A stretch of DNA of 55,118 nt from a virus (taxonomy: Duplodnaviria > Caudoviricetes), in IMG/VR virus record IMGVR_UViG_3300018080_000025, positions 1 to 55,118 of that record; one strand, 5' to 3'. A model generated the notes under the pieces. It made no database searches. It saw nothing but the letters and a program-made list of their open reading frames with translations, and was not told where the DNA came from. Of the stretch, positions 3,646-34,390 are shown one piece after another. A program made the translations under genes and the position numbers. Numbering within the stretch: position 1 is the stretch's first letter; every line of letters begins with the position of its first letter.

Positions 3646-4014
3646 ATGCCGGTGCCAGCACAAATTGACCCGATCGACGAGCTGCTAGCCTCCTTCAAGG
3701 ACGACGGGGCCGTCAAAAGGCGGGTCGAGGCGAGCGCCACGGCCCTGGCCGGCATGGACCCGCATCGGAGGCGGCAGATTCGAGCACGCATCGCTGAGAT
3801 GCCTCTTTCGTCGAGGTCGGCCTATCTGCGGGCGGTGGCCAAACAAGCCTCCCCTCGGCTGGCAATCAAGGCACACTGTATGGAGTGTTGCGGGTGGGGG
3901 CGGCGGGCTGTCGCGGAGTGTACCGGCTTCGCCTGCCCGCTCTGGGAGTACCGCCCGTTTCAGAGTTCGGCCGACAGCGAGGGCGACGAGGATGATGCGG
4001 AACACGCTGATTGA
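3646..4014 (+). CDS. Hypothetical phage protein with Cys cluster
   Basis: AIKAHCMECCG...CTGFACPLWEYRP zinc-binding-like motif. Confidence 0.65.
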   Translation: MPVPAQIDPIDELLASFKDDGAVKRRVEASATALAGMDPHRRRQIRARIAEMPLSSRSAYLRAVAKQASPRLAIKAHCMECCGWGRRAVAECTGFACPLWEYRPFQSSADSEGDEDDAEHAD

Positions 4015-4189
4015 CATCTTGCCACCGTCGATTGCCCTGGTCGCCTACCTGTTCGGATTCACGCTCCTGCACGGTGTCAGTGTTGCGATGAATCCTGAGT
4101 TGCAGCGAGTGGACTGGGGCGTGTGGCTGATCGCCGGTCTGCTGGTGATCGTGTTCTGGGGCTGTCTGAGAAGGTCTTGGCATCTCTAA
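3992..4189 (+). CDS. Small two-TM membrane protein
   Basis: Two hydrophobic segments in 65 aa. Confidence 0.55.
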   Translation: MMRNTLIDILPPSIALVAYLFGFTLLHGVSVAMNPELQRVDWGVWLIAGLLVIVFWGCLRRSWHL

Positions 4190-4205
4190 CGATGGAGGAT
4201 GGCTC

Positions 4206-4919
4206 ATGGAACTCTGGCACGGAATGGCTTTGAAACTGCGCTTCACGACGCCCATGTGTGGCGGGCGACCGCGCGACGATGAACTGGTCGAGCGCTGGTG
4301 CGAGCTTCGTAAGCCCAGTGACCCGGCCCATGCCCGGTTGAAAAGCGGGATCGGCCCGGATGGTCGCCGGCCGCGGTCGATGGCTGAGGTGGTCGAGCAG
4401 GTGGCGGCCACGACTGACGTTCTGCCCGACGAGGACCAGGACAGCGAACTGAGGAAAGTATGGGTCGGCTTTTCCAAGGACGACAACGGCCTTTTCGTAC
4501 CTGGCGGAAACCTCCGGGCGCATATCAAGGCGTGCGCGGAAACGCTCGGGCCGATCTTCAAGGCCGGCCATGTGGACGGCATGAAGGCCGTCATGAACTT
4601 CAAGAGCAAGATGACAAAGGTGTGCTACATCCAGGAGGACCGCATCTACCTGCTCAATGGCGATGGCCAACACGTTCAGGAGGCCACGGGCCACCGCGAT
4701 GCGACGATGCAGGTGATGACCGCCCTCGGACCAAGAACGTGCCTGAAGCGCGTGGATTTTGTTAATCCGTGCGCACTGGCGGCTACCGTAATGCTGCTAC
4801 AGGGCGGCGAGATCAACCGCGACCACTTGGTTGCCTGCCTGGAGTACGGCAAGCTCCAGGGTTTCAACCAGGACCGGTCGCTGGGCTTCGGCCGCTACGA
4901 CTACGAGCTGGGCGAATGA
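4206..4919 (+). CDS. Stand-alone RAMP (Cas7/Csm3-like RRM-fold) protein
   Basis: N-terminal strand LRFTTPMCGG, GLFVPGGNLRAHIK (matches the RAMP xIPGSSLKGxxR motif) and C-terminal Gly-rich loop GFNQDRSLGFGRY; GGAGG RBS; no other cas genes in the genome. Confidence 0.8.
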   Translation: MELWHGMALKLRFTTPMCGGRPRDDELVERWCELRKPSDPAHARLKSGIGPDGRRPRSMAEVVEQVAATTDVLPDEDQDSELRKVWVGFSKDDNGLFVPGGNLRAHIKACAETLGPIFKAGHVDGMKAVMNFKSKMTKVCYIQEDRIYLLNGDGQHVQEATGHRDATMQVMTALGPRTCLKRVDFVNPCALAATVMLLQGGEINRDHLVACLEYGKLQGFNQDRSLGFGRYDYELGE

Positions 4920-5071
4920 TCGGCGGATTGGGGTGGAGTGGCATGATCGGCGATGTGGATGGGGGTGCTGAGATGTGATCGGCGTGCTGACTTGTGGTGT
5001 GCTGACTTGTCGTGGTCGGCGACTTGGAATGGGGTGAGTTGGCCGGCGAGTTGGGGTGATATGGCGTGATC
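4917..5071 (+). repeat. 5-nt-periodic array (putative guide RNA locus of the RAMP)
   Basis: 29 pentamers NGNNN (22 begin TG); TGRYCGGCG anchors at 4917, 4944, 4976, 5013, 5040 and a partial TGATCG at 5067; unit lengths 27/32/37/27/27. Confidence 0.85.
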
Positions 5072-5648
5072 GTTCCAATGGTGGAGTGCCACAGATGACA
5101 CCTTGGAGATTGGTGCGAGGTTTGAATGTCCTGTCAACGACACCTACGGCGCACCCCTTCAGCTCTCGGTCGGCGTCGCTTCCGGCCGGGGGCTTGCATC
5201 ATCCTTCTGCGGCGCTTTGTCGCCGGCGAGAGTCGGCGGCAAGGCTTGGCCGGGCGCGCGGATCGGCCGCGCAAGTTGATCCGTGCGTTCCGGCCTCTGT
5301 ATGGGCTAAGCCGTGAGTGCCTGCTGTCCGGGTAGCAGGGCAGCAAAAACCGCGGATGTGATTTCTCCCTTGCTCCCGCGTCGGTGAGACTCCGGCGCGG
5401 GGGAATTGGCGCGGTCTTCCCACACACGCGCGAACTCGCAGCGGATTCGGGAGTGCAGCCCCCATAACCCGGTTGCAATGGGGGCCGTAGCCAGGAGCCA
5501 GCCTAGAGGCGCTGAAGACCGGGATGAAGCTGCGGGGCTGTCGGCGTAGGGCTCATGCGACTGTGATCGCGGCCTGACGATCGTCGGCAGTGAGTAGGAC
5601 CAGCGCCGGGTGATCTGGCAGCCCGGCGCCACTTTTGACAACCGAATT

Positions 5649-5761
5649 GCGACGGTGTGTGCACCGGACGGTGCATGCGGTGCTGCGCTGCCGGCGAGAT
5701 AGGACCGTAAAAGGTGGCCGGCCGGTGGTGGGGACCCGGGTGGGGAATCCGGGACCGTCGC
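5649..5761 (+). ncRNA. Candidate tRNA-like structured RNA
   Basis: GCGACGGT/ACCGTCGC closing stem, GCACC-GGAC-GGTGC 5' hairpin, T-arm-like CCCGGG-TGGGGAA-TCCGGG directly before the 3' strand. Confidence 0.4.
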
Positions 5762-5939
5762 GAGTTTTGTGGTGTGGACGCAAGCACTGATTCTCTCCCC
5801 CTCCCGTGGGCGCGGTGCATTCCAGTCGGTTCAGCCCGCGCCGCGCCCCGGAAAGTGACGCCCGCGGTGGACCGCGGAGCTTGAGCCCGGCGCCGGGCAT
5901 GATGCCGCAAGGCGCCGGGCCGGTTTGGAGCAAGTCGGA

Positions 5940-6809
5940 ATGCCGATCACCCCATGGCAACGCAAAAAGCGAAAGGAATCACTCGGCGGGTCCGACATGG
6001 CGGCATTGTTCGGATGTGATCCCTGGAAGACTGAGTATGACGTGTGGCTGGACAAGACCTTTCGCGTCGAGGACACACCTACTACGAAAGCCATGGAGGA
6101 AGGCAGTCTGTTTGAGCCTGTTGTCCTGGACTACGCCGAACGGCTGCATGGCCCCCTACTGCGGAATCAGCGACGCTCGGCCCCGAACCTCCCACTAGCC
6201 TCGAACATTGACGCCATCGTGCGGTCAGACGGTCTTCCGGTTGAAGCAAAGACCGTGCATTTCCAGTCTCCTGTTTTCGCCGAATATGGCGACGAAGGAA
6301 CCCACCAGGTTCCCGAGCACGTCGCGGTGCAGGCTCATGCCCATATGCTCTGCCTGCGTCTTAAGGTCGAACTCTGCCTGGTTCCGGTGCTGCTGGGTGG
6401 AACGCTGCGAGAGTACACGGTGCTCCTGAATCGCGAGCTGGCCGACATGATCGCCGACAAGGCCGACCGCTGGTGGCATGACCATGTGGTGTTGGATCAG
6501 GCGCCGGATGGAGTGCCCACGCTCGGGGTTATCCGCCGATTGAAACGCATCCAGGGCAAGCTCGCCGACATACCCGCCGAAGTCGTCGCGAAGTGGCAGA
6601 AGGCCAAAGAGGCCCGGAAACAGGCCGAAGAAACTGAGGAGCAATATGAGGCCGAGATGCTGGCCGCGCTCGGGGATGCCACGGTCGGCGACTACGGCGA
6701 CCCTGAGCGGCTGCTGGTGCTCCAGAGCGTTGATATGCCCGAAGGAACAAAGAAGGCCCACACACAAATCCGGAAATACCTGAAGAAGCGAGAAGGAGCC
6801 GAACTATGA
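5940..6809 (+). CDS. YqaJ-like viral recombinase (lambda-exonuclease family)
   Basis: RKESLGGSD, EGSLFEP, ASNIDA, VEAKT and QAHAHM motifs. Confidence 0.9.
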   Translation: MPITPWQRKKRKESLGGSDMAALFGCDPWKTEYDVWLDKTFRVEDTPTTKAMEEGSLFEPVVLDYAERLHGPLLRNQRRSAPNLPLASNIDAIVRSDGLPVEAKTVHFQSPVFAEYGDEGTHQVPEHVAVQAHAHMLCLRLKVELCLVPVLLGGTLREYTVLLNRELADMIADKADRWWHDHVVLDQAPDGVPTLGVIRRLKRIQGKLADIPAEVVAKWQKAKEARKQAEETEEQYEAEMLAALGDATVGDYGDPERLLVLQSVDMPEGTKKAHTQIRKYLKKREGAEL

Positions 6810-8101
6810 GCGACCAGACGGCGTTGGCAAAAAGGGGGCCGGGTGACAGTCCCCTCGTGCAGCGGGCAGAAGGCAGTGCGGGGCAGATCGAAGTTGCGAT
6901 GACGCGGGCTGCGCAGGAAGTCCAGGCAGCGATGGTCATGGCGCGCAGGTTCCCGCGGGATGAACGGGCAGCCTATGCGAGGATCATCAACGCCTGCAAA
7001 CGCAAATCGCTTGCCGAGCAGTCTCAGTATGCCTACCCGCGTGGCAGCTCCAAAGTTGAAGGCCCAACTATCCGGCTCGCCGAAGCGATCGCACAGAATT
7101 GGGGCAACCTGGACTCCGGCATCATCGAACTCGAGCAGCGGAACGGCGAAAGCACGATGATGGCCTACTGCTGGGACTTGGAAACGAACAATCGCCAGAC
7201 GAAGGTCTTTAATGTGCCCCATTTGCGGCGGAAAGGCGATCAGAACGTCAGGCTGCATGACCCCCGCGACATCTACGAAATGATGGCCAATCAGGGTGCC
7301 CGTCGCCTGCGGTCGTGCATCCTGGCCTGCATCCCGGGGGACATCACAGAAGCGGCCATCAATCAGTGCAACAAGACGCTGGCGGAAGGCAGCAAGGAGC
7401 CGTTGGGTGATCGCGTTCGGTCCATGGTCGCGGCCTTCGGTGAGTACAACGTCAAGCCTGGCATGATTGAGGGACGGCTGGGGCATTCACTGGATTCGGT
7501 CAGTGAGACCGAACTGATAGCCCTCCGAAAGATATACACCAGCCTCAAGGACAACATGGCTGGCGTCGGGGACTTTTTTGAGCAATCACGGGATGCGAGC
7601 AAGTCGCCAGCCCAGAACATCGTTGCCAGGGAACGAGGGAAGGGCAAGGCGGGCCAGCTACCCGAAGAATCCAAACAGCCGGAGACTGAAACACCGCAAG
7701 GCGATTTCACACCATTCCCCGAGCCCGAGGACCCGCCTGAGGCTCAACCGGCGACCGGTTCCAAGGCCGAGCCGGAGCCAGAGCCCGAGCCGGAGCCAGC
7801 CGACGAGAGCGTGCCCAACATCTCGTTCGACCAGATCGGCACCGTAGCCGTGGGATCGAAATTCGCCACGATGGCGCAAGTGGACAAGGTTGAAGAGCGG
7901 GCGATGCAGGGCAGCAACAAGGTGTACCACTGGGTCTGGCTCTTCGGCGGGGCGGCCGACAAGATCCGGGCGACCTACTGGGGATCCCTCCCTGGATGGG
8001 TGAAGCGCAACGCGACTGCCGAAATCGTCGCCAAGCGCGACAAGGACTACGGCAAGTCCATGCGCATCACCATCCTCGAATGGAACGAGGTGCAGCAATG
8101 A
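6806..8101 (+). CDS. Putative single-strand annealing (RecT-role) protein with acidic linker and C-terminal domain
   Basis: Coupled to YqaJ; ARRFPRDE...YAYPRG...EGPTIRLAEAIAQNWGN motif typical of phage recombination partners. Confidence 0.65.
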   Translation: MSDQTALAKRGPGDSPLVQRAEGSAGQIEVAMTRAAQEVQAAMVMARRFPRDERAAYARIINACKRKSLAEQSQYAYPRGSSKVEGPTIRLAEAIAQNWGNLDSGIIELEQRNGESTMMAYCWDLETNNRQTKVFNVPHLRRKGDQNVRLHDPRDIYEMMANQGARRLRSCILACIPGDITEAAINQCNKTLAEGSKEPLGDRVRSMVAAFGEYNVKPGMIEGRLGHSLDSVSETELIALRKIYTSLKDNMAGVGDFFEQSRDASKSPAQNIVARERGKGKAGQLPEESKQPETETPQGDFTPFPEPEDPPEAQPATGSKAEPEPEPEPEPADESVPNISFDQIGTVAVGSKFATMAQVDKVEERAMQGSNKVYHWVWLFGGAADKIRATYWGSLPGWVKRNATAEIVAKRDKDYGKSMRITILEWNEVQQ

Positions 8102-8370: not shown

Positions 8371-9117
8371 ATGCCCAAGGACTCGATTAACATGCCTCGT
8401 GCGATCCTCGCGGCCCCCGACCTTACGCCCATGGCCAAAATCGTCTACGCACTCATGGCCGACGGGAGCACTTCGAGGGGCCTTTGTAGGCTCAGTTTGC
8501 GTTCTTTGGCAGCCCAGATAAGTGTCGACAAGGCCACAATCGCGCGCGCGCTCGCCGACCTTAGAAACGTCGGCCTCATTACAGCGCAACTCCATGGCAG
8601 AGGCAAACTTACGGAACATGTCGTCCGCCGCCCAACTGTCCGCAAAGCGCGGTCACCGCAAAGCGCGTACACTTCCAAACTGTCCGCAAAGCGCATACAG
8701 TCGGGAGATGTAAGTCCTGCCCCCGAAAGCACTTGCGCCGAGGAGCCCCATAGTGTCCGCAAAGCGCGTACAGTTGAGCAGCCACCCGAAGACGTTCCAG
8801 ACCAGATCATCGACCTTGCCCGGCAGTTTTTCGGCCAGCCGGCCATTGGCAGTTATCCCCTCGGGCTTTTGGGTGAGCGCATCAGCACTTACGGGGCCAA
8901 TGTCGTCGAAGTCGGCTTGAAGATCGCCATCGAGGGCAACCCCTCCCGCCGCTCCTGGGCCTATCTCGACAGCATCCTCAAAAGCGGGGCTCAGCGATTC
9001 AGGGACGAACAGGGCAAGCATCGGCCCCGCCGGCGGCCCAAGCCGAAGGCCCTTCTGGACGCCGAGGAGGAGGCCGAAGCCAAGGAATCCAGGCGGCAAC
9101 TGGAGGAGCTGTTCTGA
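8371..9117 (+). CDS. Replication initiator (N-terminal winged HTH, DnaD-like C-terminus)
   Basis: LTPMAKIVY...SLRSLAAQISVDKATIARALADLRNVGLI; C-terminal WAYLDSILK; internal iterons. Confidence 0.75.
   Translation: MPKDSINMPRAILAAPDLTPMAKIVYALMADGSTSRGLCRLSLRSLAAQISVDKATIARALADLRNVGLITAQLHGRGKLTEHVVRRPTVRKARSPQSAYTSKLSAKRIQSGDVSPAPESTCAEEPHSVRKARTVEQPPEDVPDQIIDLARQFFGQPAIGSYPLGLLGERISTYGANVVEVGLKIAIEGNPSRRSWAYLDSILKSGAQRFRDEQGKHRPRRRPKPKALLDAEEEAEAKESRRQLEELF
8637..8772 (+). repeat. Iterons, putative replication origin
   Basis: Four copies of CCGCAAAGCGC (consensus TGTCCGCAAAGCGCGTACA) at about 8637, 8656, 8681 and 8754. Confidence 0.8.
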
Positions 9118-9617
9118 TGCCGGCGATGACGTGGGACCAATATGCCGAGCAAGTCGAGCCGGTGCTTCGCGATCTGTGGCCCAAATGGGACTACAACGAC
9201 GAAATCGCGACCATCGTACATCGGAAAGTCAGCGGATACTTTCCTGAAACGGTCGTGAAAGCAATGCGTCGGCACCGGGAGGAATCGTTCGACGGATCGG
9301 CCCGGGTGCATCCGCGGCCCAACATCGGGACCGTCACGGAACTCTGTCGCAAAGCCGTCGAGGGCGAACGAAAGACATCGTGGCTGGATCGCCAGGTGCG
9401 TGAGCATCAGGAGCACTACTCCTGGTGGGCTCACAAGGGCTGGGAGTGCCCACCGGAACACGAGTTGCGGGCCATGATTCAAGAAGGCAGACAGACGCCG
9501 CTCCAACTCCACTGCCGGAAAGAAGTCGGCAAGATCGGGCGGATGCTGTTTCACCCGGGTTACAAGACGCGGCGGGACCTAGGCGCCGCTGAGGCGGAAA
9601 GCGAGGCAGCGGAATGA
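9117..9617 (+). CDS. Hypothetical protein, possible helicase loader or inhibitor
   Basis: Coupled directly after the initiator; PNIGTVTELC-type motif; assignment mainly positional. Confidence 0.45.
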   Translation: MPAMTWDQYAEQVEPVLRDLWPKWDYNDEIATIVHRKVSGYFPETVVKAMRRHREESFDGSARVHPRPNIGTVTELCRKAVEGERKTSWLDRQVREHQEHYSWWAHKGWECPPEHELRAMIQEGRQTPLQLHCRKEVGKIGRMLFHPGYKTRRDLGAAEAESEAAE

Positions 9618-10159
9618 TCGTCATCGGTATCGACCCGGGGCTGACCGGCGCCTTGGTTGCAATGGGGAGATTCGAGCCGATTGCCATCTCGATGCCCGTA
9701 ATAGGCACAGGTAAACGCGGCCGGAGGCAGGTCGATGCAAAAGGTTTGAAGGAATGGCTGGATCGTGTCGCCGTTTTCGACGACGAACCCCCGCACGTCT
9801 TCATTGAGAAGGTCTTCGCCATGGGCCGGCATTTAGACAAAAGAACGGGGCGGATGGTCGGCCAGAGCACCATGACGGCGTTCACGTTCGGCATGGGATA
9901 TGGAATAATCTTGGGCGTTGTCGAATCGCTTGGTTTCCCACACACACTCGTTTCGCCGAAGACGTGGCAAAAGGCCATGCTGCGCGATCTGGCGCACGAG
10001 GATACGAAGAAGGCATCGGTCTGGCGAGCAAACCAATTGTTTCCGCATGTGCAACTAAAACGCACGTCGCGCTCCCGCATCGACGATCACGGCATGGCGG
10101 ACGCCTTATTGATCGCTGAGTACGGCAGTCGGCAACTGAGAGGCGAGAGGGTCTTTTGA
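9614..10159 (+). CDS. ruvC: RuvC-like Holliday junction resolvase
   Basis: IGIDPGLTGA, VFIEKV, PKTWQK, ADALLIA. Confidence 0.88.
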   Translation: MIVIGIDPGLTGALVAMGRFEPIAISMPVIGTGKRGRRQVDAKGLKEWLDRVAVFDDEPPHVFIEKVFAMGRHLDKRTGRMVGQSTMTAFTFGMGYGIILGVVESLGFPHTLVSPKTWQKAMLRDLAHEDTKKASVWRANQLFPHVQLKRTSRSRIDDHGMADALLIAEYGSRQLRGERVF

Positions 10160-10934: not shown

Positions 10935-11228
10935 ATGAAATGCCAACGGTGCGGAGCTTGTTGCCGCACGCTACTCGTCGAGTGCGATTACGATGACTGC
11001 GTCCGTGAGCCGAGGCTGCTTAAGCCATCCACCAATCCGCACGGCCTATCGCTGGCGGATTTAGAAGGCGGCGAGAAGTGCATCAAGCTCTGGCGCTGTC
11101 GTTTTCTTGGCCCAGACAACCTGTGCACGATCTACGCAACGCGACCGCAGGAATGCCGCGATTTTGAGCCTGGCAACCCGAAATGCCTAGAAGCCCGCGA
11201 AGAATGCCACACGGGAGATATGCCATGA
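10935..11228 (+). CDS. YkgJ-family Zn/Fe-chelating cysteine-cluster protein
   Basis: CQRCGACC...CRFL...[14 protein letters not shown]. Confidence 0.85.
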
Positions 11229-11809
11229 CACCCGACGAACTAAAAACCGTGCTCGCAGAACATGGAAAGTGGCTGCGCGGTGATGGTGGAAAACAGGCGG
11301 ATCTCCGCAGGGCGTATCTCCACGGGGCGGATCTCAGCGGGGCGAATCTCCGCGGGGCGAATCTCATCGAGGCGTATCTCAGCGGGGCGGATCTCATCGA
11401 GGCGAATCTCATCGGGGCGAATCTCAGCGGGGCGAATCTCAGCGGGGCGAATCTCAGCGGGGCGGATCTCCGCGGGGCGAATCTCAGCGGGGCGAATCTC
11501 AGCGGGGCGGATCTCCGCGGGGCGGATCTCAGCGGGGCGTATCTCAGCAGGGCGGATCTCAGCAGGGCCACGCTTAACTGGGACTCCCACGATCTGCTGG
11601 CTGAGATACTGCGACAGGCGGCCGGCGACGATATAGCCAAGCGCAAGCTGGCCGGACTCGTGCTGGTGGGTCGCGATTGGTGCTGGGACGATTTTCTCGC
11701 GTTAGATGATCCGCTGCGTGATTGGGCGCTTGATACGCTGGCGGTATACGCGACACCTGATGACGACGCGCCGGACGAAATACAGAAGCGAGCGGGAGGT
11801 GCGACGTGA
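11225..11809 (+). CDS. Pentapeptide-repeat protein
   Basis: About 19 A(D/N/Y)LxG repeats after LAEHGKWL; 15-bp DNA tandem repeats. Confidence 0.92.
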
Positions 11810-17363: not shown

Positions 17364-17575
17364 CTTACGACGAAGCCAAAGACGTAACGATGCCGTTCGG
17401 AAAGTACAAGGGGAAGACGTTGGCCGAAATCGCCGAGGCCGACGTGATGTACCTGGATTGGTTGAACGACGGGAAGCTCTACGGGAAGCTGAAGCCCGCG
17501 GTTGAAGCGGCCTGCGAGCAATTCGCCCACGAGATCGAGGCGAAGATGGCGGAGCGGGAAGGGGATCATAGCTAA
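17360..17575 (+). CDS. Small MPFGKYKG-motif protein (DUF3820/ExoX C-terminal-like)
   Basis: MPFGKYKGKTLAEI...YLDWL. Confidence 0.75.
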   Translation: MTYDEAKDVTMPFGKYKGKTLAEIAEADVMYLDWLNDGKLYGKLKPAVEAACEQFAHEIEAKMAEREGDHS

Positions 17576-18552
17576 CCGACCGCTGGCCCCTTCAATTTCC
17601 TGGCCGCCTCCTTGGCCCGCCTGGATCGGATCTGGGCGTATATCTGGGTTGTGGTGATGCGGGAATGGCCCAAAAGCTCCTGAAGCACCTCCAGCGATCC
17701 TGGCTTTCCGTCGTCGCCGTGGTCCAAGTAGTGCTGCGCAAACGTATGTCTGAGCGAGTAGACAGACCTAAGCCCGGCCCGGTAGCAGATCGCGTGCAGG
17801 CCATCCTTGCTATAGGGTTTGCCCAAGCGGCTGGGGAATACCCACTTGCCGCCTCGTTTCCGGCGTTGTCCGCGAAGGATCTCAGCAGCGTCTGGCGGGA
17901 GGTAGATCGTGCGGGATTTTCCATGGGCGGATGTCTTGTGCTTCTGCTTTGTGATGATGCCGGCCCGCAGATCCACTTCCGACCATTCCAGAAGCCGCGC
18001 CTCCGACGGCCGGCACCCCGTAGCCAGGATGAAGCGCAACAGCGGCTTGGCGCGTCCACGAATCCGTGAAAAGGCGGCCCGGATTTTGCTCAGCGATTCG
18101 TCCCGCCGCCCGGCCGTGGGCGGCGCGGACTTGATTCGTCGAGGCAACTGCCGGATCCAACCTTGCTCGTGCCCCCACCTCCAAGCGCGAGCCGCCGCCC
18201 CGACATACCGACGTACCGTCCACGGGCTCAGTCCTGCCGCCTCGAGTCTTTCGGCAAGCCCTTGGAGGTCGGCCGGAGCCAATTCGGAAAGCAAGCGCGG
18301 ACCAGACGCCGAAACCCAGTGGTGCAGATTCCCCAAATCGGACGGATGGAGATCGGTCCAGGCGTTAACAAGCCCAGCCACAGAAATTGGTTTCGGCCGC
18401 TGCCTCCCGCCGGCTTCCAACAACTCGTCGGCCCGGCGGTAAGCTTCGGCCGCATCCGTACCAAGATAGTGCTGTTTGCGGTTCAGCTTCAGCGTGTACC
18501 ACGGTTTCCGCCCGCGGCGCCGATGACGCTGTACCGAAGGATGCCAGCCCAT
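17572..18552 (-). CDS. int: Tyrosine recombinase (phage integrase)
   Basis: TGCRPSE, HKT, YSLRHTFA, LLGHSRITTTQIY; N-terminal arm-binding region; adjacent to attP. Confidence 0.95.
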   Translation of the reverse strand: MGWHPSVQRHRRRGRKPWYTLKLNRKQHYLGTDAAEAYRRADELLEAGGRQRPKPISVAGLVNAWTDLHPSDLGNLHHWVSASGPRLLSELAPADLQGLAERLEAAGLSPWTVRRYVGAAARAWRWGHEQGWIRQLPRRIKSAPPTAGRRDESLSKIRAAFSRIRGRAKPLLRFILATGCRPSEARLLEWSEVDLRAGIITKQKHKTSAHGKSRTIYLPPDAAEILRGQRRKRGGKWVFPSRLGKPYSKDGLHAICYRAGLRSVYSLRHTFAQHYLDHGDDGKPGSLEVLQELLGHSRITTTQIYAQIRSRRAKEAARKLKGPAVG

Positions 18553-18564
18553 GTGTAAATCGCC

Positions 18565-18823
18565 CAAGGGGGAGCGCGAATGCTCAAGGGGGAGCGCTTG
18601 GACGCCCCCGCCTGTTGGCATCATGCCCGGAAGTCGCGTGATTTCAAGCCCTTAGCGACTGGGCGATGACGGGCTCGAACCGCCGACCTCCTCCTTGTAA
18701 GGGAGGAATCCTTGCCTTGGCGCAAAAGCAACCGGGCATTGACGAAACAAAGACTGGATGCGCTCCCCCTTGCCCCTCAAACGACACCGAAAAACATTGG
18801 GGTTTTGACCCAAGGGGGAGCGC
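18565..18823. repeat. Four integrase arm-type sites CAAGGGGGAGCGC
   Basis: Direct copies at 18565, 18585 and 18811; inverted copy at 18760-18772; they flank the tRNA-derived core. Confidence 0.8.
18660..18706 (-). other. attP core: 3' part of tRNA-Val(TAC)
   Basis: Minus strand CCTCCCTTACAAGGAGGAGGTCGGCGGTTCGAGCCCGTCATCGCCCA has an anticodon arm (TAC), T arm and 3' acceptor strand; the 5' half is absent. Confidence 0.9.
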
Positions 18824-19650
18824 TAGAGCCGTGCGAGGATATCCTGCCAGTGCTGGCGGACGTAGGAGGCGCCACCTAGGTCGCGTAGCCTGCGCCGAAC
18901 CGTCGAACGATCCACGCCGGCAGCACGGGCGGCCTCTATCACACCGAGGTCATGCTGGCCGACGAGACGCACGAGCTTGGCTAGCGAGACTTTGTAGTGG
19001 CCGCTGCCCCGACCTCCCCAGCCGCAAGGCGGGTCGGGCGGTTCCTCTCCGTTTTTCTCGGCCTTGGCCACACGCTTCTTGTGCAAGGTCAGGGTCCGCC
19101 GGACGTAGGATTCGCTCGTGTTCATTAGGGTTGCCAGGGCGGATATGCTTTCACCTTGTTCCCGTCTCCTGATGATTTCCTTAGCCTTTGCTTTGGCCGC
19201 TTCGATACCGGCCTGCTGGGCGGACAGTATACGTTCCCGATGCGCCTCTGCAAAAGCCAAGTGCATCGCGACCATCACCTTGAGAATGGCTTGCCCCATC
19301 CAATTGTGGGGATTGACCTCAAGGGTGTTGTCTACAAAGATCATCTTCACCCCGGCCCGCTGCCATTTGTCGATGGCCACAAGCCCGTCAATCATGGTGC
19401 GGGCAAACCGATCGACCGAGTACATCACCACGGTATGTATCTCGCCGTGGAAGATGGCCTTTTCCAATTGGTAGATCCCAGGCCGCTGCATTTCCGATCC
19501 GGTTTCTCCCTCGTCGATGTACCAGTAATCGAGCGGGATGGTCATCCCATGACCACGTAGATACCGTTTGATCGATTCCTGTTGTGCCTTGACGTTTTGG
19601 TCGTCGGTGCTCACACGCATGTAGACGGCCGCGTGGTTATCATTTGTCAT
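18823..19650 (-). CDS. Serine recombinase (resolvase/invertase family) with C-terminal HTH
   Basis: YMRVSTDDQ, DEGETGSEMQRPG, VDRFAR; C-terminal AARAAGVDRSTVRR. Confidence 0.92.
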   Translation of the reverse strand: MTNDNHAAVYMRVSTDDQNVKAQQESIKRYLRGHGMTIPLDYWYIDEGETGSEMQRPGIYQLEKAIFHGEIHTVVMYSVDRFARTMIDGLVAIDKWQRAGVKMIFVDNTLEVNPHNWMGQAILKVMVAMHLAFAEAHRERILSAQQAGIEAAKAKAKEIIRRREQGESISALATLMNTSESYVRRTLTLHKKRVAKAEKNGEEPPDPPCGWGGRGSGHYKVSLAKLVRLVGQHDLGVIEAARAAGVDRSTVRRRLRDLGGASYVRQHWQDILARL

Positions 19651-26149: not shown

Positions 26150-26445
26150 TGGATTGTGCTCCCGAAACGGGATAGGATGGTAGCGTCGATGGGTCACACC
26201 CCATCGGCCGCGCCCCGCGGCAACCCGCATTGCCGGCGGGGTTTTTTCGCCAGTGATACCCTACCACAGAATCGCCGATGGGGCAAGTACGTTCCCCCGG
26301 ATTCGGGCGGAAAAATACGTAACCTGCTGTGACACAACACGTTAGGCGCGCAAGAAAATCTACTTTTTTTTGGGGCGATACCGATCCGAGGTACATGCGC
26401 ACTTGCCCCGCGTTCCCGCCTATGCGCGCGCAGCCTACCCTAATT

Positions 26446-26870
26446 TGGGTAATAGTACCCACTGGGTAATAGTACCCAGAATTGGGTAATGGGTAATTTG
26501 GCAGAGTCTTGCCGATATTGTCGAGATCCTGACAACGGGTTCGGCGCGTCCGTCGATGCCATTTACGATTATGCGGTCTGGGTAAGATAGGTAAGATTCG
26601 GGCTGGCGGGTGGAATTGGGGTGGAATTGGGGCGGAATTACGGAATTGGCGCGAGACTTGGGGGCGGATGGGGCGTTTGGTGTCCCTCGTGGCCGGCGGT
26701 GCTGGCGGGGGCGCCAGAGGGGATCGGGGCAAGTCGGGGGCGGGGCATGTGGAGTACACTCCAAAAGCCCCCTTCGGGTCGGTCGCCAGGAGCGAGCGCG
26801 CCCGCCTGGGATGGGGAGATTGGCTATCGAGGCGGATTCCGGGCGGATTCCGGGCGGTTTCCGGCCGCTG
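26446..26870. repeat. Cluster of short repeats in a large intergenic region
   Basis: TGGGTAATAGTACCCA x2, GGAATT x4, GGCGG(A/T)TTCCG x3. Confidence 0.75.
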
Positions 26871-27394
26871 CCGGCCGGCGGTTGCGGCCGCTCGGACGGC
26901 TAGGCCGGCGGTGTCACGGGTTGCCGCGGGAGGCGCATAATGCCCGCGGCGGCCGGGGGCCACGGACCCCGGCGATTCTCCTGAAAATCAGGAATCCTAC
27001 CCCCTTTTGAAATTGTTCATTCTGCGCTTCGGCTGGTTTTTCGGACGTATGGTGTGCGTCGGTGGGGCAATAGTGTAGTGAAAGTGCGCACTTTCAATCG
27101 GCGGCCAGGAATTCCGCCAGCTCTCGCCCATTTGTCGGTCAACCGCACGCAACCTTCCCCCCTCTCATACTCTCCCCCCTTCTTGGGTGGGTGCGCAGAA
27201 ACCACGCTTCGTTCGCCCGAGACTGATTTCGGGGGTATCTTGGGTCGGCCCAGGTGATTTGAGGGCCGTGGCGCGCGGAGGAGGCATGGTTTTGGTGGGG
27301 TCTACGGATTTCCTCGGGCTGTCGGGATGTTTCCAAACTCGGTTTCCGGGCGCATAGTCGTACCGATTTGGTGCTGTTTCGGTTTTGCGACGTG

Positions 27395-27410
27395 TGTTTC
27401 ACGTGAAACG
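27395..27410. promoter_or_regulatory. parS-like palindrome
   Basis: TGTTTCACGTGAAACG, 15/16 match to the bacterial parS consensus TGTTTCACGTGAAACA. Confidence 0.7.
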
Positions 27411-27478
27411 CAGGTCTTGTGTCTGTGGCGTCGGTGGCCTAGGATGTTGTGGGTGGGGGTCTGTGGTGGAGGACGACC

Positions 27479-29884: not shown

Positions 29885-31915
29885 ATGATGCTGAGCCGAC
29901 GACAGAGCGCCGACCTCGACCTGCCGCACCTGGCGGCGTGGCTTCCGGAGGAATACTTCGATATGCCGGAAGATCAGCGGCGCATTGCCGAGCGCGCAGC
30001 CACGCTTCAGGCGGCCCACCTGCCCCCCGATTACGACGGCCTGGATGAAGAGGCCCGGCTCGAGGCCCGAAAGTCGGTCCTGTCGTCATGGTTCGACCCG
30101 GATCGGATTAACGTCCTCTGCACGGACGTAGAGAATCTGATTGCGGCGCACTTCCTTTGGGTCGAGTTCTACCTGAAGCCGGACGCCTACAGCGGGGGTG
30201 ACTATTTCTTCCGGGACCCGATCACGAAGTACGACCTTGTTCGGGCGGCGATGTCGCCACCGAAACTGGAGGGTCATCCCGCAAAGACGGTCATCCACTG
30301 CCCAAGGCACACAACCAAGACGAAGACCCTCATTCACGAAATGTGTTCGATGATGGTCGTGATGCGCCCGCACACCAAGATCCTCGTGAGCGAGGTGAAC
30401 AAGGATCGGAGCACGGAGGAGCTTCAGGCAATCCGCTTCACGCTCCAGAACAATGAACTGATCGCCCGCGACTTCGGCGGACTCGGGACACTTTACTGCA
30501 CGAGCTACAAATCCGGGATGAAGTGGAACGATTCGCGCCTGGACATCGCCCTCCATCCCCACACGTCGATCATGGCATTCAGCACGAAATCGAAGCAGCG
30601 TGGGCGTCACCCCATTCTGGGCATCATCGACGACCCGGAGGATGACGAGACCGCGCAGGATCAGACCTTCAGGCGGAAGTTCTTCACCAACCTGTTCCGC
30701 CGCTACATGGGCATGTTCTACCCAGGCGCCCACATCATCTGGATCGGGACGGTGATGCGGGCATCCTGTCTGCAAATCGCCCTGGCCGACCTGATCGACG
30801 TGGACCCCGACAGCCGCAGCGACGTGGAAGAGTACGACGCGCGTTTCAAGGACTGGAACAAGGTCCACTTCCCCATGATCGAGCGCGACCCGGCGACGGG
30901 CGAGCGTTACAGCATCATGCAGGACCAGACCTCGGTACGAGCCTATGACGAGAAGCACGAGACGATGGGCGCGGCGGTCGTCGCCTCGGAGCTGGACGGC
31001 AAGCCGGTTGCCGAGGGCCAATTCGCACTTGTCCGTGATCCGGTTTGGCACGGCTACATGCACTGCCGGCGCATGGATAATGCGCCCGGTCTGCCGGAAG
31101 AATACCTGCTGGATCTCTGCAACGGGCAGATCATGGAATGGCGACAGTGGTTGACGACGGTGCAGGTCGTTGCAGGTTGCGACATCGCGGATTCGACGGC
31201 CATTGACGCTGATTTCGGCGCCAACGCGCTGGTGGGAATCGACCCTTACGGGACGGTCTTCGTCCTCGACATCTACGTCAAGCGCATGATCGCCGACGAT
31301 TGGCCGGAGAAAGCGCTGGGCATGGCATTCGAGTGGGGCGCGGTCCGCCAGGCATTCGATACCGCGGCCATGCAAAAGGTCGTGTTCCGTATGGCCGAAC
31401 GGCTTCGGATGTTGGCAGAGGAACGCGGCCATTCGCCACCAACACTCGTCGCCCTCGGGAACACGGCCCAGCGCAACAAGCATTTGAAGATTTTGAGTTC
31501 ACTCCGGCCACTCCACCGCAAGGAATTGATCCGCTATCCCTTCTTCAAGTCGATTCGCACGGATGATGGAAGGACGCACCATCCCTTCCCGCATTCCCAC
31601 GAGGGCAGTTTCCGGGAACTGTACCGGGAGATCGACACGTATACGGACGAGGGGGCCAGCGGACACGACGACGCGATCGACGCGCTCCAGATGGCGATCC
31701 ATATCGGGGCGAGGCTGAGGGGCGAGCCCCTGAAAGAGTACGACGAGAACGAGGCGGAACTGAAGAAGTGGGAAGAGGCCGGCGTGGACTGGCGCGCGCG
31801 GCGCCATCTGATCCCCTATGAGGCGTGGACGGACGATATGAAAGCTGACGCGGATTCGGATGATCCGGAGCTGGTCGGCGTTGCCGACGAGGTGGACCCG
31901 TATGCCTTTTGCTGA
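29885..31915 (+). CDS. terL: Terminase large subunit
   Basis: PRHTTKT Walker A variant, RGRHP...IIDDPED, WIGT, nuclease GCDIA and HDDAIDAL. Confidence 0.88.
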   Translation: MMLSRRQSADLDLPHLAAWLPEEYFDMPEDQRRIAERAATLQAAHLPPDYDGLDEEARLEARKSVLSSWFDPDRINVLCTDVENLIAAHFLWVEFYLKPDAYSGGDYFFRDPITKYDLVRAAMSPPKLEGHPAKTVIHCPRHTTKTKTLIHEMCSMMVVMRPHTKILVSEVNKDRSTEELQAIRFTLQNNELIARDFGGLGTLYCTSYKSGMKWNDSRLDIALHPHTSIMAFSTKSKQRGRHPILGIIDDPEDDETAQDQTFRRKFFTNLFRRYMGMFYPGAHIIWIGTVMRASCLQIALADLIDVDPDSRSDVEEYDARFKDWNKVHFPMIERDPATGERYSIMQDQTSVRAYDEKHETMGAAVVASELDGKPVAEGQFALVRDPVWHGYMHCRRMDNAPGLPEEYLLDLCNGQIMEWRQWLTTVQVVAGCDIADSTAIDADFGANALVGIDPYGTVFVLDIYVKRMIADDWPEKALGMAFEWGAVRQAFDTAAMQKVVFRMAERLRMLAEERGHSPPTLVALGNTAQRNKHLKILSSLRPLHRKELIRYPFFKSIRTDDGRTHHPFPHSHEGSFRELYREIDTYTDEGASGHDDAIDALQMAIHIGARLRGEPLKEYDENEAELKKWEEAGVDWRARRHLIPYEAWTDDMKADADSDDPELVGVADEVDPYAFC

Positions 31916-31923
31916 GGTGGCCG

Positions 31924-32310
31924 ATGTCTGAACTGTTGATTGTCGCAATCGTGTTCGCCGCCGCCGGGGTTTGTGTCTGGCTGCCGACATGCTGGCTTCT
32001 GGCCAGATTGGCGAACCACATTCTCGGCATGACCGGCGTGACGCTGCGCGAGCGCGCCCGGGACCGGCGGGACGCGATGGGATTCGTGCAGCAGACTGCG
32101 GAACTTGTGACGGGCGAACTGAAAAACGTGATCGAACAGCACGCCAGGGAGCGACACGCGCAGCGCCAACTCGACGCCAGTGTGGACATGCAGGAGATCC
32201 GGGCCAAGCAGCCGCCTCCAGAACCCCAACTCGATCAACCCCAGTATCCCGACGGTCAACCGTCGGAATCACTGATGGAGCACATGAGCCATGATACGGG
32301 ACCGACTTGA
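31924..32310 (+). CDS. Membrane-anchored hypothetical protein
   Basis: GAGGTG RBS; N-terminal TM helix; between terL and portal. Confidence 0.6.
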   Translation: MSELLIVAIVFAAAGVCVWLPTCWLLARLANHILGMTGVTLRERARDRRDAMGFVQQTAELVTGELKNVIEQHARERHAQRQLDASVDMQEIRAKQPPPEPQLDQPQYPDGQPSESLMEHMSHDTGPT

Positions 32311-34390
32311 TTATCTGCTGAACCGTCTGAAGCGCCCCCCGAACAAGCAGGGGAGGCTTCCGAATACCGATCTCGTCGCCGGGCTGAACAAGGAGGACCG
32401 CAAGAGTGCGTCCAACATCGCCAAGCGACTCCGCGAACAATTCGACCGCGGCCTGGACCGGCGTCTGATCCACGCGATCAAATGGACGCAGGTACTCAGT
32501 GTCCTGAACGGGATCCACTACTTCAAGATCGATAAGTACGGGCGTTGGTCGCCGGTCAACCCGCGCGAGCCGAACCAGGTCCGCGCCGTCGTGCCCGTCC
32601 TGGAGCCGTTCTATCGCTGGGAACATGGGCGCCTGTCCTCGAACCAGCTCGGTGTGGTGGCCCGGCCTTCCACGGGCCACGGTGATTCCGCCTATTTCGA
32701 GGCGCAACTGGCCCAGGACGCGATGAATTACTGGGTCGAGGAGACCGATATTGCCTCAGTTGATGACGAGGCGAACCAACACCTACTCGTGTACGGCGGG
32801 TGCGCGTTTTTCAGTGAAAAGGTCGCCTGGCGGAATCAAGTCTTTCTTCGGGCCTTCCCATTCTGCGAGTTGTTCCCCATCCCCTACGATTCGCGCAACT
32901 GGGTCGAGATGGACGGGGTGGCCCGCATCATCACCGTCTCAAAAGATTGGCTGGAGATGCAGGACGAAGCGTACCGCCGGCGTACCGGTCACGAGCCGTC
33001 CCGGCGCATGACCGATCTCGCGGGAACGCAGACAGCCGACATGCACGCCAACTTCACCGGCTTCACGTCGAGCATCCAATACAAGAGCAAGTTCGACGGC
33101 GCCACCTGCATGTGGATCTGGATGAAGCCGACCGAGCTGAACCCGTTCGGCGAGCACCTGTTCATGGTCGAGGACGAGCTGTTCGGCTACGTTTCGGGCG
33201 TCGATCAGGAAGGGCGCAAGATCGCGCTGGTGGGTGATGAGCTTCCGCTGTTCCCGGTCCACTACAACAAAAAGCCGCACGATTGGTGGCCTTACGGGTT
33301 CTGCGAAACACTCGTCCCGATGCAGCTCGAACACAATCGCCAGATGTCCAACCTGGTCGAGTCGGCGAACCGCAACAAGGGCGTGACGGCATACAACAGC
33401 GCGTGCATCAATGCGAACGATGTGCAAAACGCGCACTCCGGATTTATCCCCTTCCGGGCGCCGGGGCCGGATGAGCGCATCGCCCCGCTGCTTCATTTCC
33501 CGCCGACAAACGTCGGCCGCGACGTTGGCGCCGTACTCCAGGTCTGCGACCAGTTTGCCAAGCAGGGGGCCGGCTATCAGAGCGATATTCTCTTCGGACA
33601 ACAGGAGGGCCGAACAGAAAGCGGTCCCGCAACGCAGATTCTCAACACCAACGCGCAGATGCCCATGCAGGTCGTGCTCGACCGCAAATGGCGGGCGCTG
33701 CGCAAAGCCTACCGCGCCATCTATGAGGACATCCGCCAGGTCTGGCCACCGGAGAAGCATATCCGACTGGAAGGCGCCGACGGGCTGGCACGCGAAGCCG
33801 TCATTCAACGGGAGAAGCTGCCCGCCTTGAATGAAATCGAGCTGTCCCCGATGCCGCTCGTCGTCAATGGCCGCGTGGGCATGATTAACATGCTGTTCAA
33901 CCTGCGCGGCATGAAGGGTGACGATCAGCAAGCACCAATTGTCAGCGAGACGGAGTTCAGGCGCTCACTGCAAATGCTTGGCATGGCGCCTCCGGGCATG
34001 GTGTTGTATGACCAGATCGAACAGCGCATCCGCTGGCGGATCAGTCAGCTTATTGGAGACGGCAAGTCCCCGACCATTCCCGTCGTAGACCAGGATCCCG
34101 TGGCGCGGCGGTGGCAACGTATGGAGCACCACATTCTTGCCATCCGCATTCTCAAGGAAAAGATCCTCGATCCGGCCTTCCGCACGTACTCGCCCGAGGT
34201 TCGGCAGGCGCTCGAGCTCGAACTGAAATATCACCACAGCAGCATTCAAACTTCGCCTCAGCCCGACCTGTTCGACGATCAGGCCGATCGCCATGAGGCC
34301 ATGCAGATGGAAGCGTATTTGGAAGCGGCGGAGAACAACCCGGAGGACTTCTCGTCCGTGTTCGCGCCGTCCGCAGTCACGATGGCATAG
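32291..34390 (+). CDS. Portal protein
   Basis: 699 aa after terL; WPYGFCETLVPMQLEHNR and ESGPATQIL resemble P22-like portals. Confidence 0.8.
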   Translation: MIRDRLDYLLNRLKRPPNKQGRLPNTDLVAGLNKEDRKSASNIAKRLREQFDRGLDRRLIHAIKWTQVLSVLNGIHYFKIDKYGRWSPVNPREPNQVRAVVPVLEPFYRWEHGRLSSNQLGVVARPSTGHGDSAYFEAQLAQDAMNYWVEETDIASVDDEANQHLLVYGGCAFFSEKVAWRNQVFLRAFPFCELFPIPYDSRNWVEMDGVARIITVSKDWLEMQDEAYRRRTGHEPSRRMTDLAGTQTADMHANFTGFTSSIQYKSKFDGATCMWIWMKPTELNPFGEHLFMVEDELFGYVSGVDQEGRKIALVGDELPLFPVHYNKKPHDWWPYGFCETLVPMQLEHNRQMSNLVESANRNKGVTAYNSACINANDVQNAHSGFIPFRAPGPDERIAPLLHFPPTNVGRDVGAVLQVCDQFAKQGAGYQSDILFGQQEGRTESGPATQILNTNAQMPMQVVLDRKWRALRKAYRAIYEDIRQVWPPEKHIRLEGADGLAREAVIQREKLPALNEIELSPMPLVVNGRVGMINMLFNLRGMKGDDQQAPIVSETEFRRSLQMLGMAPPGMVLYDQIEQRIRWRISQLIGDGKSPTIPVVDQDPVARRWQRMEHHILAIRILKEKILDPAFRTYSPEVRQALELELKYHHSSIQTSPQPDLFDDQADRHEAMQMEAYLEAAENNPEDFSSVFAPSAVTMA

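Follow-up and report, generated by a model that had tools for sequence, protein, structure and literature searches.

The window analyzed here, all 55,118 bp of the complete virus record IMGVR_UViG_3300018080_000025 (G+C content, 61.6%), is the genome of a temperate, tailed phage. On its plus strand, it carries a vipr-like gene, which encodes a small protein of the RAMP superfamily, and a repeat array that begins within the stop codon of this gene. The pairing resembles VIPR, a phage system described in two 2026 preprints (10.64898/2026.04.26.720920; 10.64898/2026.04.26.720927). According to the accessible portions of these preprints, VIPR combines a minimal phage RAMP protein (Vipr) with vrRNAs in which 9 to 16 YNNGG repeats are joined to a structured tail. 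Each repeat is occupied by one protomer, which sequesters the GGY bases and displays the two variable bases (NN). Double-stranded DNA (dsDNA) is recognized with one base skipped, and rival mobile elements are silenced transcriptionally. Seven types are distinguished in the same portions, some of them with other repeat consensuses.

An initial annotation of the window, made from the letters of the DNA and without database searches, had singled out a 237-amino-acid (aa) open reading frame (ORF) for three RAMP motifs, and this ORF was found in place with all three motifs present (Table 1). The protein matched no family in Pfam, PHROG, NCBIfam, or PADLOC, the searches of Pfam and NCBIfam being empty even at an E value of ≤10, and a sequence search of the PDB gave chance-level matches only. 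A word-indexed search of 5.8 billion proteins yielded a family alignment of 44 proteins including the query (alignment A1). Family members are 217 to 273 aa long, the 43 relatives are 43 to 57% identical to the query, and their names are not informative. No relative was found when the A1 profile was compared with the viral contig collection. Twenty-seven columns of the alignment are invariant, including R104-A105-H106, K108, G175-P176-R177, and, within the C-terminal glycine-rich loop (G-loop), Q222, D223, R224, G229, and Y231.

An AlphaFold model built on the A1 alignment was confident (predicted local distance difference test [pLDDT], 88.4; predicted template modeling score [pTM], 0.83). Foldseek returned 49 matches in the PDB at an E value of ≤0.001 (best, 3.9e-6), and all of the matches listed were entries of CRISPR effector complexes (type VII, Csm, Cmr, type IV Csf, and Cas7-11). 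Among predicted viral structures (BFVD), the best match was a 194-aa stand-alone phage 'RAMP superfamily protein' (E, 1.7e-11; TM score, 0.58/0.69). The confident model and the matches to CRISPR effectors and a viral RAMP confirmed the predicted RAMP fold of the protein, so the Cas7-like identity that had been proposed for it withstood structure prediction. The predicted chain has the makeup of a Vipr: it is a small, stand-alone RAMP whose RRM core is joined by a glycine-rich loop, a thumb, and a helical bundle, and it lacks a second RRM. Used for a hidden Markov model (HMM) scan, the A1 profile matched 1248 cluster representatives at an E value of ≤1e-3, 505 at ≤1e-10, and 43 at ≤1e-30; with 43 representatives at the strictest threshold against 1248 overall, the A1 family makes up only a minor branch of a large superfamily. 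The Atlas clusters nearest to the family are 93 to 100% viral. One relative lies in a Phycisphaerales metagenome-assembled genome (MAG), which is the only one of 401 sampled genomes of its phylum to contain the family.

The link to VIPR, which the initial annotation had suggested, gained substance from the published descriptions and from a profile-profile match to the Vipr clade of phage SUSP1. Inspection of the SUSP1 locus showed two genes, encoding 195 and 146 aa, with tracts of GGTNN repeats flanking them. When the A1 alignment (44 sequences) was compared by hhalign with an alignment of 41 SUSP1 Vipr homologs (alignment A2), a match of 92.1% probability was obtained (E, 6.2e-7; 156 columns), lending moderate support to homology with a characterized Vipr. 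The match reaches both C termini, pairing residues 53 to 237 of the window protein with residues 26 to 195 of SUSP1 Vipr, and it places the G-loop (G219-Y231) on that of SUSP1 Vipr (G174-F185). In the accessible portions of the VIPR preprints, cryo-electron microscopy (cryo-EM) is reported to show that D177, W178, and R179 of the SUSP1 G-loop read the GGY bases, with D177 and W178 reading the two guanines. In the A1-A2 alignment, D177/W178 face the invariant Q222/D223, and R179 faces R224.

The array next to the gene is composed of five units, each made up of a conserved 7-nucleotide (nt) word followed by a run of pentamers of the form NNNTG (Table 1). The TG is constant, terminating 21 of the 23 pentamers in the window, and the NNN is hypervariable. 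The stop codon does serve as the start of the array, as had been claimed: the repeat region begins with the TGA (4917 to 4919). The initial annotation had also described a 155-nt array with a 5-nt period, GG punctuation, and a closing hairpin. The recurrence of TG is real: within 4917 to 5071, TG is followed by TG at +5 in 16 instances, compared with 5.14 ± 1.94 in dinucleotide shuffles (0 of 5000 shuffles reached 16), and every other 155-nt window of the genome, on either strand, has at most 4. Lag-5 identity over the same interval was 0.407, compared with 0.321 ± 0.037 in shuffles (reached by 87 of 5000). The array is not uniform, however, as a 7-mer splits it into runs of four to six pentamers. 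What was taken for GG punctuation is this conserved 7-mer, ATCGGCG, and three positions of each pentamer vary rather than two. With NNNTG as the unit, the suspected departure from the GGY/NN motif was confirmed. Because each 7-nt word shifts the pentamer frame by 2, the period-5 Fourier power of the array as a whole does not rise above that of shuffles (0.59, compared with 0.64 ± 0.41; reached by 909 of 2000).

The array strand is G/T-rich (A20 C21 G72 T42 over 4917 to 5071), and folded as RNA, the array is not structured, if anything less so than shuffled sequences (z, +0.86). A closing hairpin can be drawn at 5075 to 5106, but its stability is at chance level (35 of 200 shuffles fold equally well) and it lacks a T-run; this part of the earlier description is not supported. 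By eye, no shared counterpart of the hairpin and no shared trailing sequence were seen after the arrays of homologs. No promoter-like or terminator-like sites were found near the array, and Rfam gave nothing above threshold over it. Two other candidates were rejected. Two sub-threshold Rfam matches to C/D-box RNA (E, ≤1) in the array were taken as chance. A minus-strand ORF across the array (4901 to 5143) resembles other arrays through the repeats, and coding was rejected because unit lengths of 27, 32, and 37 nt break the reading frame.

Thirteen related loci, consisting of the Phycisphaerales MAG chromosome and twelve metagenome contigs, were compared with the window. Ten of the 13 have the same array design, always on the strand of the gene, downstream of it in seven (L001, L002, L003, L007, L008, L012, and L013) and upstream in three (L004, L005, and L006). 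No array accompanies the gene in the remaining three: L009 is a contig of 1.1 kb, and in L010 and L011 the contig ends at the gene. The idea that periodic arrays accompany homologs of the gene was thus upheld, both here and in a second clade described below. Counting the window, eight loci have the array downstream, and in seven of them it is opened by the stop TGA, which supplies TG and the A of the first word. The exception is L012, where the array begins about 30 nt past a TAA stop, after a C7...G7 inverted repeat (4738 to 4768). In the MAG genome, the array motif clusters solely at the vipr locus (six matches), with two lone one-mismatch matches elsewhere and none in a reversed control.

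The dimensions of these arrays are tightly constrained. Spacings between punctuation words equal 7+5n nt in 78 of 83 instances, and by a motif-independent measure, 78 of 84 short gaps separating runs of NNNTG measure exactly 7 nt. The 99 units analyzed range from 2 to 8 pentamers (one 14-pentamer parse was set aside), with four pentamers in 39, five in 38, and six in 16. The last pentamer of each unit, which is forced to TG by the parsing, was left out of the counts for positions 4 and 5; of the 378 first and middle pentamers, 345 (91%) have T at position 4 and 377 (99.7%) have G at position 5. Positions 1 to 3 of the middle pentamers are free (0.03 to 0.08 bits). The base after TG in middle pentamers is G in 100 of 279, and a purine directly follows the 7-nt word in 92 of the 99 units. 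Ninety-seven of the 99 units are distinct, and 63 of the 64 possible triplets are used. Long arrays of 26 and 18 units lie upstream of the gene in L004 (154 to 900) and L006 (3399 to 3990), respectively. Near-duplicate units within these two arrays differ at one or two variable positions, which suggests that arrays grow by unit duplication and drift.

The HMM scan also identified 11 more distant proteins (alignment A4), which matched A1 at 100% by hhalign (E, 1.4e-60). Thirteen of their 16 IMG/VR loci were analyzed; L023 and L030 were dropped as duplicates of L022 and L029, and L026 was dropped since no array was visible. In the arrays of this clade, the word that separates the NNNTG runs is 8 nt long and has CGAG at its end. 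The gaps between runs are 8 nt in 43 of 48 instances, and the spacings equal 8+5n nt in 94 of 107, mostly with five to seven pentamers per unit. Of 574 pentamers, 476 have T at position 4 and 538 have G at position 5. The A4 arrays hold 94 guides, or about 190 together with the 99 of the A1 family. Because the A4 loci show the same NNNTG runs, here with an 8-nt word, the punctuated TG/NNN layout is, on the sequence evidence, a clade-wide architecture that is not peculiar to the window phage.

A near-identical phage lacks the gene and the array together. Contigs from four other metagenome runs (three studies) join position 4161 to position 5119, with the intervening 957 bases replaced by 56 others; this junction was read from low-depth contigs. 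Relative to the window, the flanking sequences of these contigs show 9 differences in 255 positions and 4 in 216 (about 96 to 98% identity). Since exactly these two elements are missing, the gene and array travel as one cassette and thus come and go together as an accessory module. On the 5' side of the cassette, a 122-aa plus-strand ORF (3646 to 4014) that lies outside the cassette and matches no family has a cysteine cluster, CMECCGW...C...C, suggestive of a zinc ribbon; this ORF is not conserved next to homologs of the vipr-like gene. The roughly 800 bp between the cassette and the exonuclease gene (5119 to 5924) contain no convincing ORF, no Rfam match, and only scattered short GC-rich inverted repeats, and at least 5119 to 5400 are retained in the cassette-less relative.

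In the wider genome, the gene and array lie directly upstream of a plus-strand recombination and replication block, among tightly packed plus-strand ORFs, and from this placement it is reasonable to infer that they belong to an early operon. Terminase, portal, and integrase genes mark the site as viral. No PADLOC cas model was matched by the 62 crude ORFs scanned (of 74 called), and Tandem Repeats Finder detected no CRISPR-like array in the 55,118-bp genome, where no 24- to 40-nt repeats were found. No neighboring gene is common to the window and the 13 related loci; among 11 related loci, none is conserved, the close pair L005/L006 excepted. Elsewhere, a plus-strand gene for a pentapeptide-repeat protein (11183 to 11809; Pfam PF00805; E, 1e-37) contains a 15-nt tandem repeat in 18 copies (11296 to 11568), which gives the strongest period-5 Fourier signal of the genome; this signal is coding sequence and is unrelated to the vipr-like array. 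The crude gene calls leave about 1.2 kb (26230 to 27449) empty but for a 51-aa call on the minus strand (26997 to 27152); this stretch holds short tandem repeats of 17 nt in 1.9 copies (26446) and 11 nt in 3.1 copies (26831) and could be an origin or packaging region.

Table 1. Features of the vipr-like cassette and of the phage genome that carries it
Feature	Position	Strand	Remarks
Cassette (vipr-like gene and array)	4162-5118	+	Absent from near-identical phage
vipr-like minimal RAMP gene, 237 aa	4206-4919	+	GGAGGA ribosome-binding site at 4194-4199
Codons of C-terminal glycine-rich loop (G219-Y231, GFNQDRSLGFGRY)	4866-4898	+	
vrRNA-like array, five punctuated units	4917-5072	+	Opens with stop TGA; ends in partial word ATCG (5069-5072)
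Unit 1	4919-4945	+	ATCGGCG and four pentamers
Unit 2	4946-4977	+	ATCGGCG and five pentamers, two without terminal TG
Unit 3	4978-5014	+	ATCGGCG and six pentamers; internal 15-nt duplication
Unit 4	5015-5041	+	GTCGGCG and four pentamers
Unit 5	5042-5068	+	GCCGGCG and four pentamers
Weak inverted repeat ('hairpin')	5075-5106	+	Inside cassette; -7.0 kcal/mol, z -0.9
RecE/YqaJ-like exonuclease	5925-6809	+	Recombination/replication block
phrog_3657 protein	6806-8101	+	Recombination/replication block
Replication initiator	8371-9117	+	Recombination/replication block
RuvC-like resolvase	9614-10159	+	Recombination/replication block
Tyrosine integrase	17572-18624	-	
Serine invertase/recombinase	18823-19650	-	Side by side with tyrosine integrase
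Large terminase subunit gene	29885-31915		
Portal gene	32291-34390		

The fold, the remote homology, the anatomy of the array, its linkage and co-orientation with the gene, and the cassette-like presence and absence of the two form the basis of a VIPR-type reading. We put the probability at roughly 80% that the cassette is an RNA-guided DNA-recognition module of the VIPR superfamily, with a non-canonical TG/NNN code and punctuated mini-guides. The gene and array would be transcribed as one RNA from the early plus-strand operon of the phage, because they share a strand with no gap and no terminator-like site between them. By homology with the SUSP1 system studied by cryo-EM, each pentamer of the array RNA, which is G/U-rich and unstructured, may take up one RAMP protomer, which would hold the constant U-G and display the variable bases. 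The 7-nt AUCGGCG(R) elements would then break the register of the filament every four to six protomers, resulting in five mini-guides that may be cut apart or remain strung on one RNA. Each mini-guide could read a short gapped word in the dsDNA of a competing mobile element, with 12 to 18 programmable bases if all three N pair, and DNA binding may in turn block transcription of that element. Binding rather than cutting is likely because no nuclease or helicase partner is conserved.

Several observations weigh against this interpretation. BLASTP found no match between the 237-aa protein and SUSP1 Vipr, and the relative clade A4 matches A2 only weakly by hhalign (35%; E, 4e-4); the sequence link to Vipr therefore hangs on one profile comparison with a low effective number of sequences. 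The unit is NNNTG and not GGY/NN (YNNGG), although this excludes the canonical type rather than the superfamily, because the VIPR authors allow for 'a related consensus'. Instead of 9 to 16 uninterrupted repeats and a conserved structured 3' tail, the array has runs of four to six pentamers and a 7-nt word. An accessory vap-like gene, which is typical but not universal in VIPR, is not conserved beside the family loci. A two-base code over four to six pentamers would give 8 to 12 bases of specificity, which is very little; a three-base code is favored for this reason, by argument and not as a result. Finally, 97 guides performed no better than shuffled guides in two target searches, one with 10 pairing rules (NNN or NN, skip of 0 to 3) against about 230 kb (both strands of the window and family loci with the arrays masked), a set far too small to decide the matter, and one with seven rules against about 190 kb (both strands of five related phage loci retrieved through a RecT-like neighbor), a set far too small to do so. 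Perfect 12/12 matches in the first search were isolated, as chance predicts.

A more specific arrangement is conceivable, though we consider it doubtful. Each protomer may sequester only U-G and present three programmable bases, forming one-turn mini-filaments of four to six protomers with 7- to 8-nt tags, packed head to tail at up to 26 per array. If so, VIPR would include a repeat-spacer organization in which the tag is short and constant and the guide is variable and phased. In structure, such arrays would plausibly stand midway from the vrRNAs of VIPR to the arrays of CRISPR, and they would grow by duplication of units and not by Cas1-mediated acquisition.

The same parts might instead target RNA, with the filament pairing with transcripts of a competitor or the host and blocking or cutting them in the manner of Csm3/Cmr4 and Cas7-11. 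In line with this, the closest solved folds are those of RNA-targeting Cas7 proteins (type VII Cas7, Csm3, and Cas7-11), and a DNA-handling accessory gene is not conserved. However, the nearest characterized relatives by profile are Vipr proteins, which bind dsDNA. In Csm3, the catalytic Asp presumably lies in the loop after strand 1; the sole acidic residue near this loop in the window protein, D25, falls outside the invariant and ≥90% conserved columns. RNA targeting thus appears improbable.

It is still less probable that the repeat region acts as DNA, as iterons or protein-binding sites for origin, partition, or packaging functions, with the RAMP-like protein merely adjacent or bound to DNA. 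The ATCGGCG words do recur every 27 to 37 bp, similar to iteron spacing, and the region is upstream of recombination and replication genes. Nevertheless, the array has a strong strand bias (G72/C21) and is always co-oriented with the gene, its spacing follows 7+5n rather than the helical repeat, and the filling between words is hypervariable while the TG phasing is kept. In addition, the fold is that of an RNA-binding protein, and the array is absent with the gene from the near-identical phage, so it is not essential for replication. A decayed remnant of class 1 CRISPR-Cas, with a lone cas7 and a functionless degenerate array, would account for the Cas7-like fold but is scarcely credible given that no Pfam, NCBIfam, or PADLOC Cas model is matched, the family is well conserved (27 invariant columns), its superfamily numbers 1248 cluster representatives, both clades retain the array design, and there are no 24- to 40-nt repeats.

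The Methods of 10.64898/2026.04.26.720920, in the portion accessible, list NNNGG, YNNNG, and NNNNG as alternative repeats ("related consensus") together with 'staggered arrays', and the accessible part of an October 2026 preprint (10.64898/2026.10.21.760802) reports the non-canonical clusters 'TGH/NN, WGT/NN, GAC/NN'. Since VIPR with non-canonical pentamers has already been described, the window system looks like a divergent variant rather than a new kind of system. VIPR itself was reported as a minimal, reprogrammable reader of DNA that is free of a protospacer-adjacent motif; its RNA code is gapped, and it has been put forward as possibly ancestral to CRISPR. If the constant part of the variant is 2 nt and three bases are free, the VIPR code would not be fixed at GGY/NN, and each protomer would carry denser information for engineering. 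A natural layout like a miniature repeat-spacer array would also bear on how CRISPR arrays might have arisen. The loci described here place VIPR-type systems in phages of sediment metagenomes, with one provirus copy in a Phycisphaerales genome.

Comparison with known systems brings out what is shared and what is not. Like VIPR type II (Escherichia phage SUSP1 and a P. fulva prophage) as described in the accessible portions of the preprints, the window system is phage-borne, and its protein component is a single small RAMP that stands alone and carries a helical insertion as well as a G-loop. Next to the gene, and on its strand, each system has a non-coding array of tandem pentanucleotides in which some positions are constant and others hypervariable, and cas genes and CRISPR arrays are absent from both. 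In contrast to the same descriptions, the window array has three variable bases per pentamer and a constant TG (2 nt) where VIPR type II has two variable bases and GGY, its runs comprise 4 to 6 pentamers rather than 9 to 16, these are split by a 7-nt word instead of ending in a structured tail of about 40 to 60 nt with a pseudoknot, and the locus is without a vap gene. The replacement of D177/W178 of SUSP1 Vipr by Q222/D223 provides a concrete handle on how the constant bases are read.

With the non-canonical VIPR arrays, as far as the accessible text describes them, the window system shares a five-base period, a constant part other than GGY, and a Vipr-like fold, and one of these arrays has a TG-led motif. 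This motif, given as 'TGH/NN' in the accessible part of 10.64898/2026.10.21.760802, differs in that the base after TG is unconstrained in the window family and often G, hence not 'H'. The main text of the VIPR preprints, where accessible, makes no mention of 7- to 8-nt punctuation or of guides of four to six units, but the 'staggered arrays' of fig. S18 of 10.64898/2026.04.26.720920 may be the same layout; a literature search for NNNTG, TGNNN, or a stand-alone RAMP found nothing relevant.

The RAMP fold is shared with the class 1 Cas7 proteins (Csm3/Cmr4, type VII Cas7, Csf2, and Cas7-11). Unlike these, the window system is viral and consists of a single gene, matches no curated Cas7/RAMP sequence model, has no partner cas genes and no CRISPR repeat-spacer array, and has an implied footprint of 5 nt rather than 6 nt. 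With CRISPR arrays, it has in common a short conserved word that alternates with variable stretches of similar length, extending to 26 units in one related locus. Cas1 and cas2 are absent from the window, and the 'repeat' is just 7 to 8 nt, whereas the 'spacers' are phased by TG every 5 nt, have lengths quantized in fives, and seem to have multiplied by duplication and drift rather than by acquisition.

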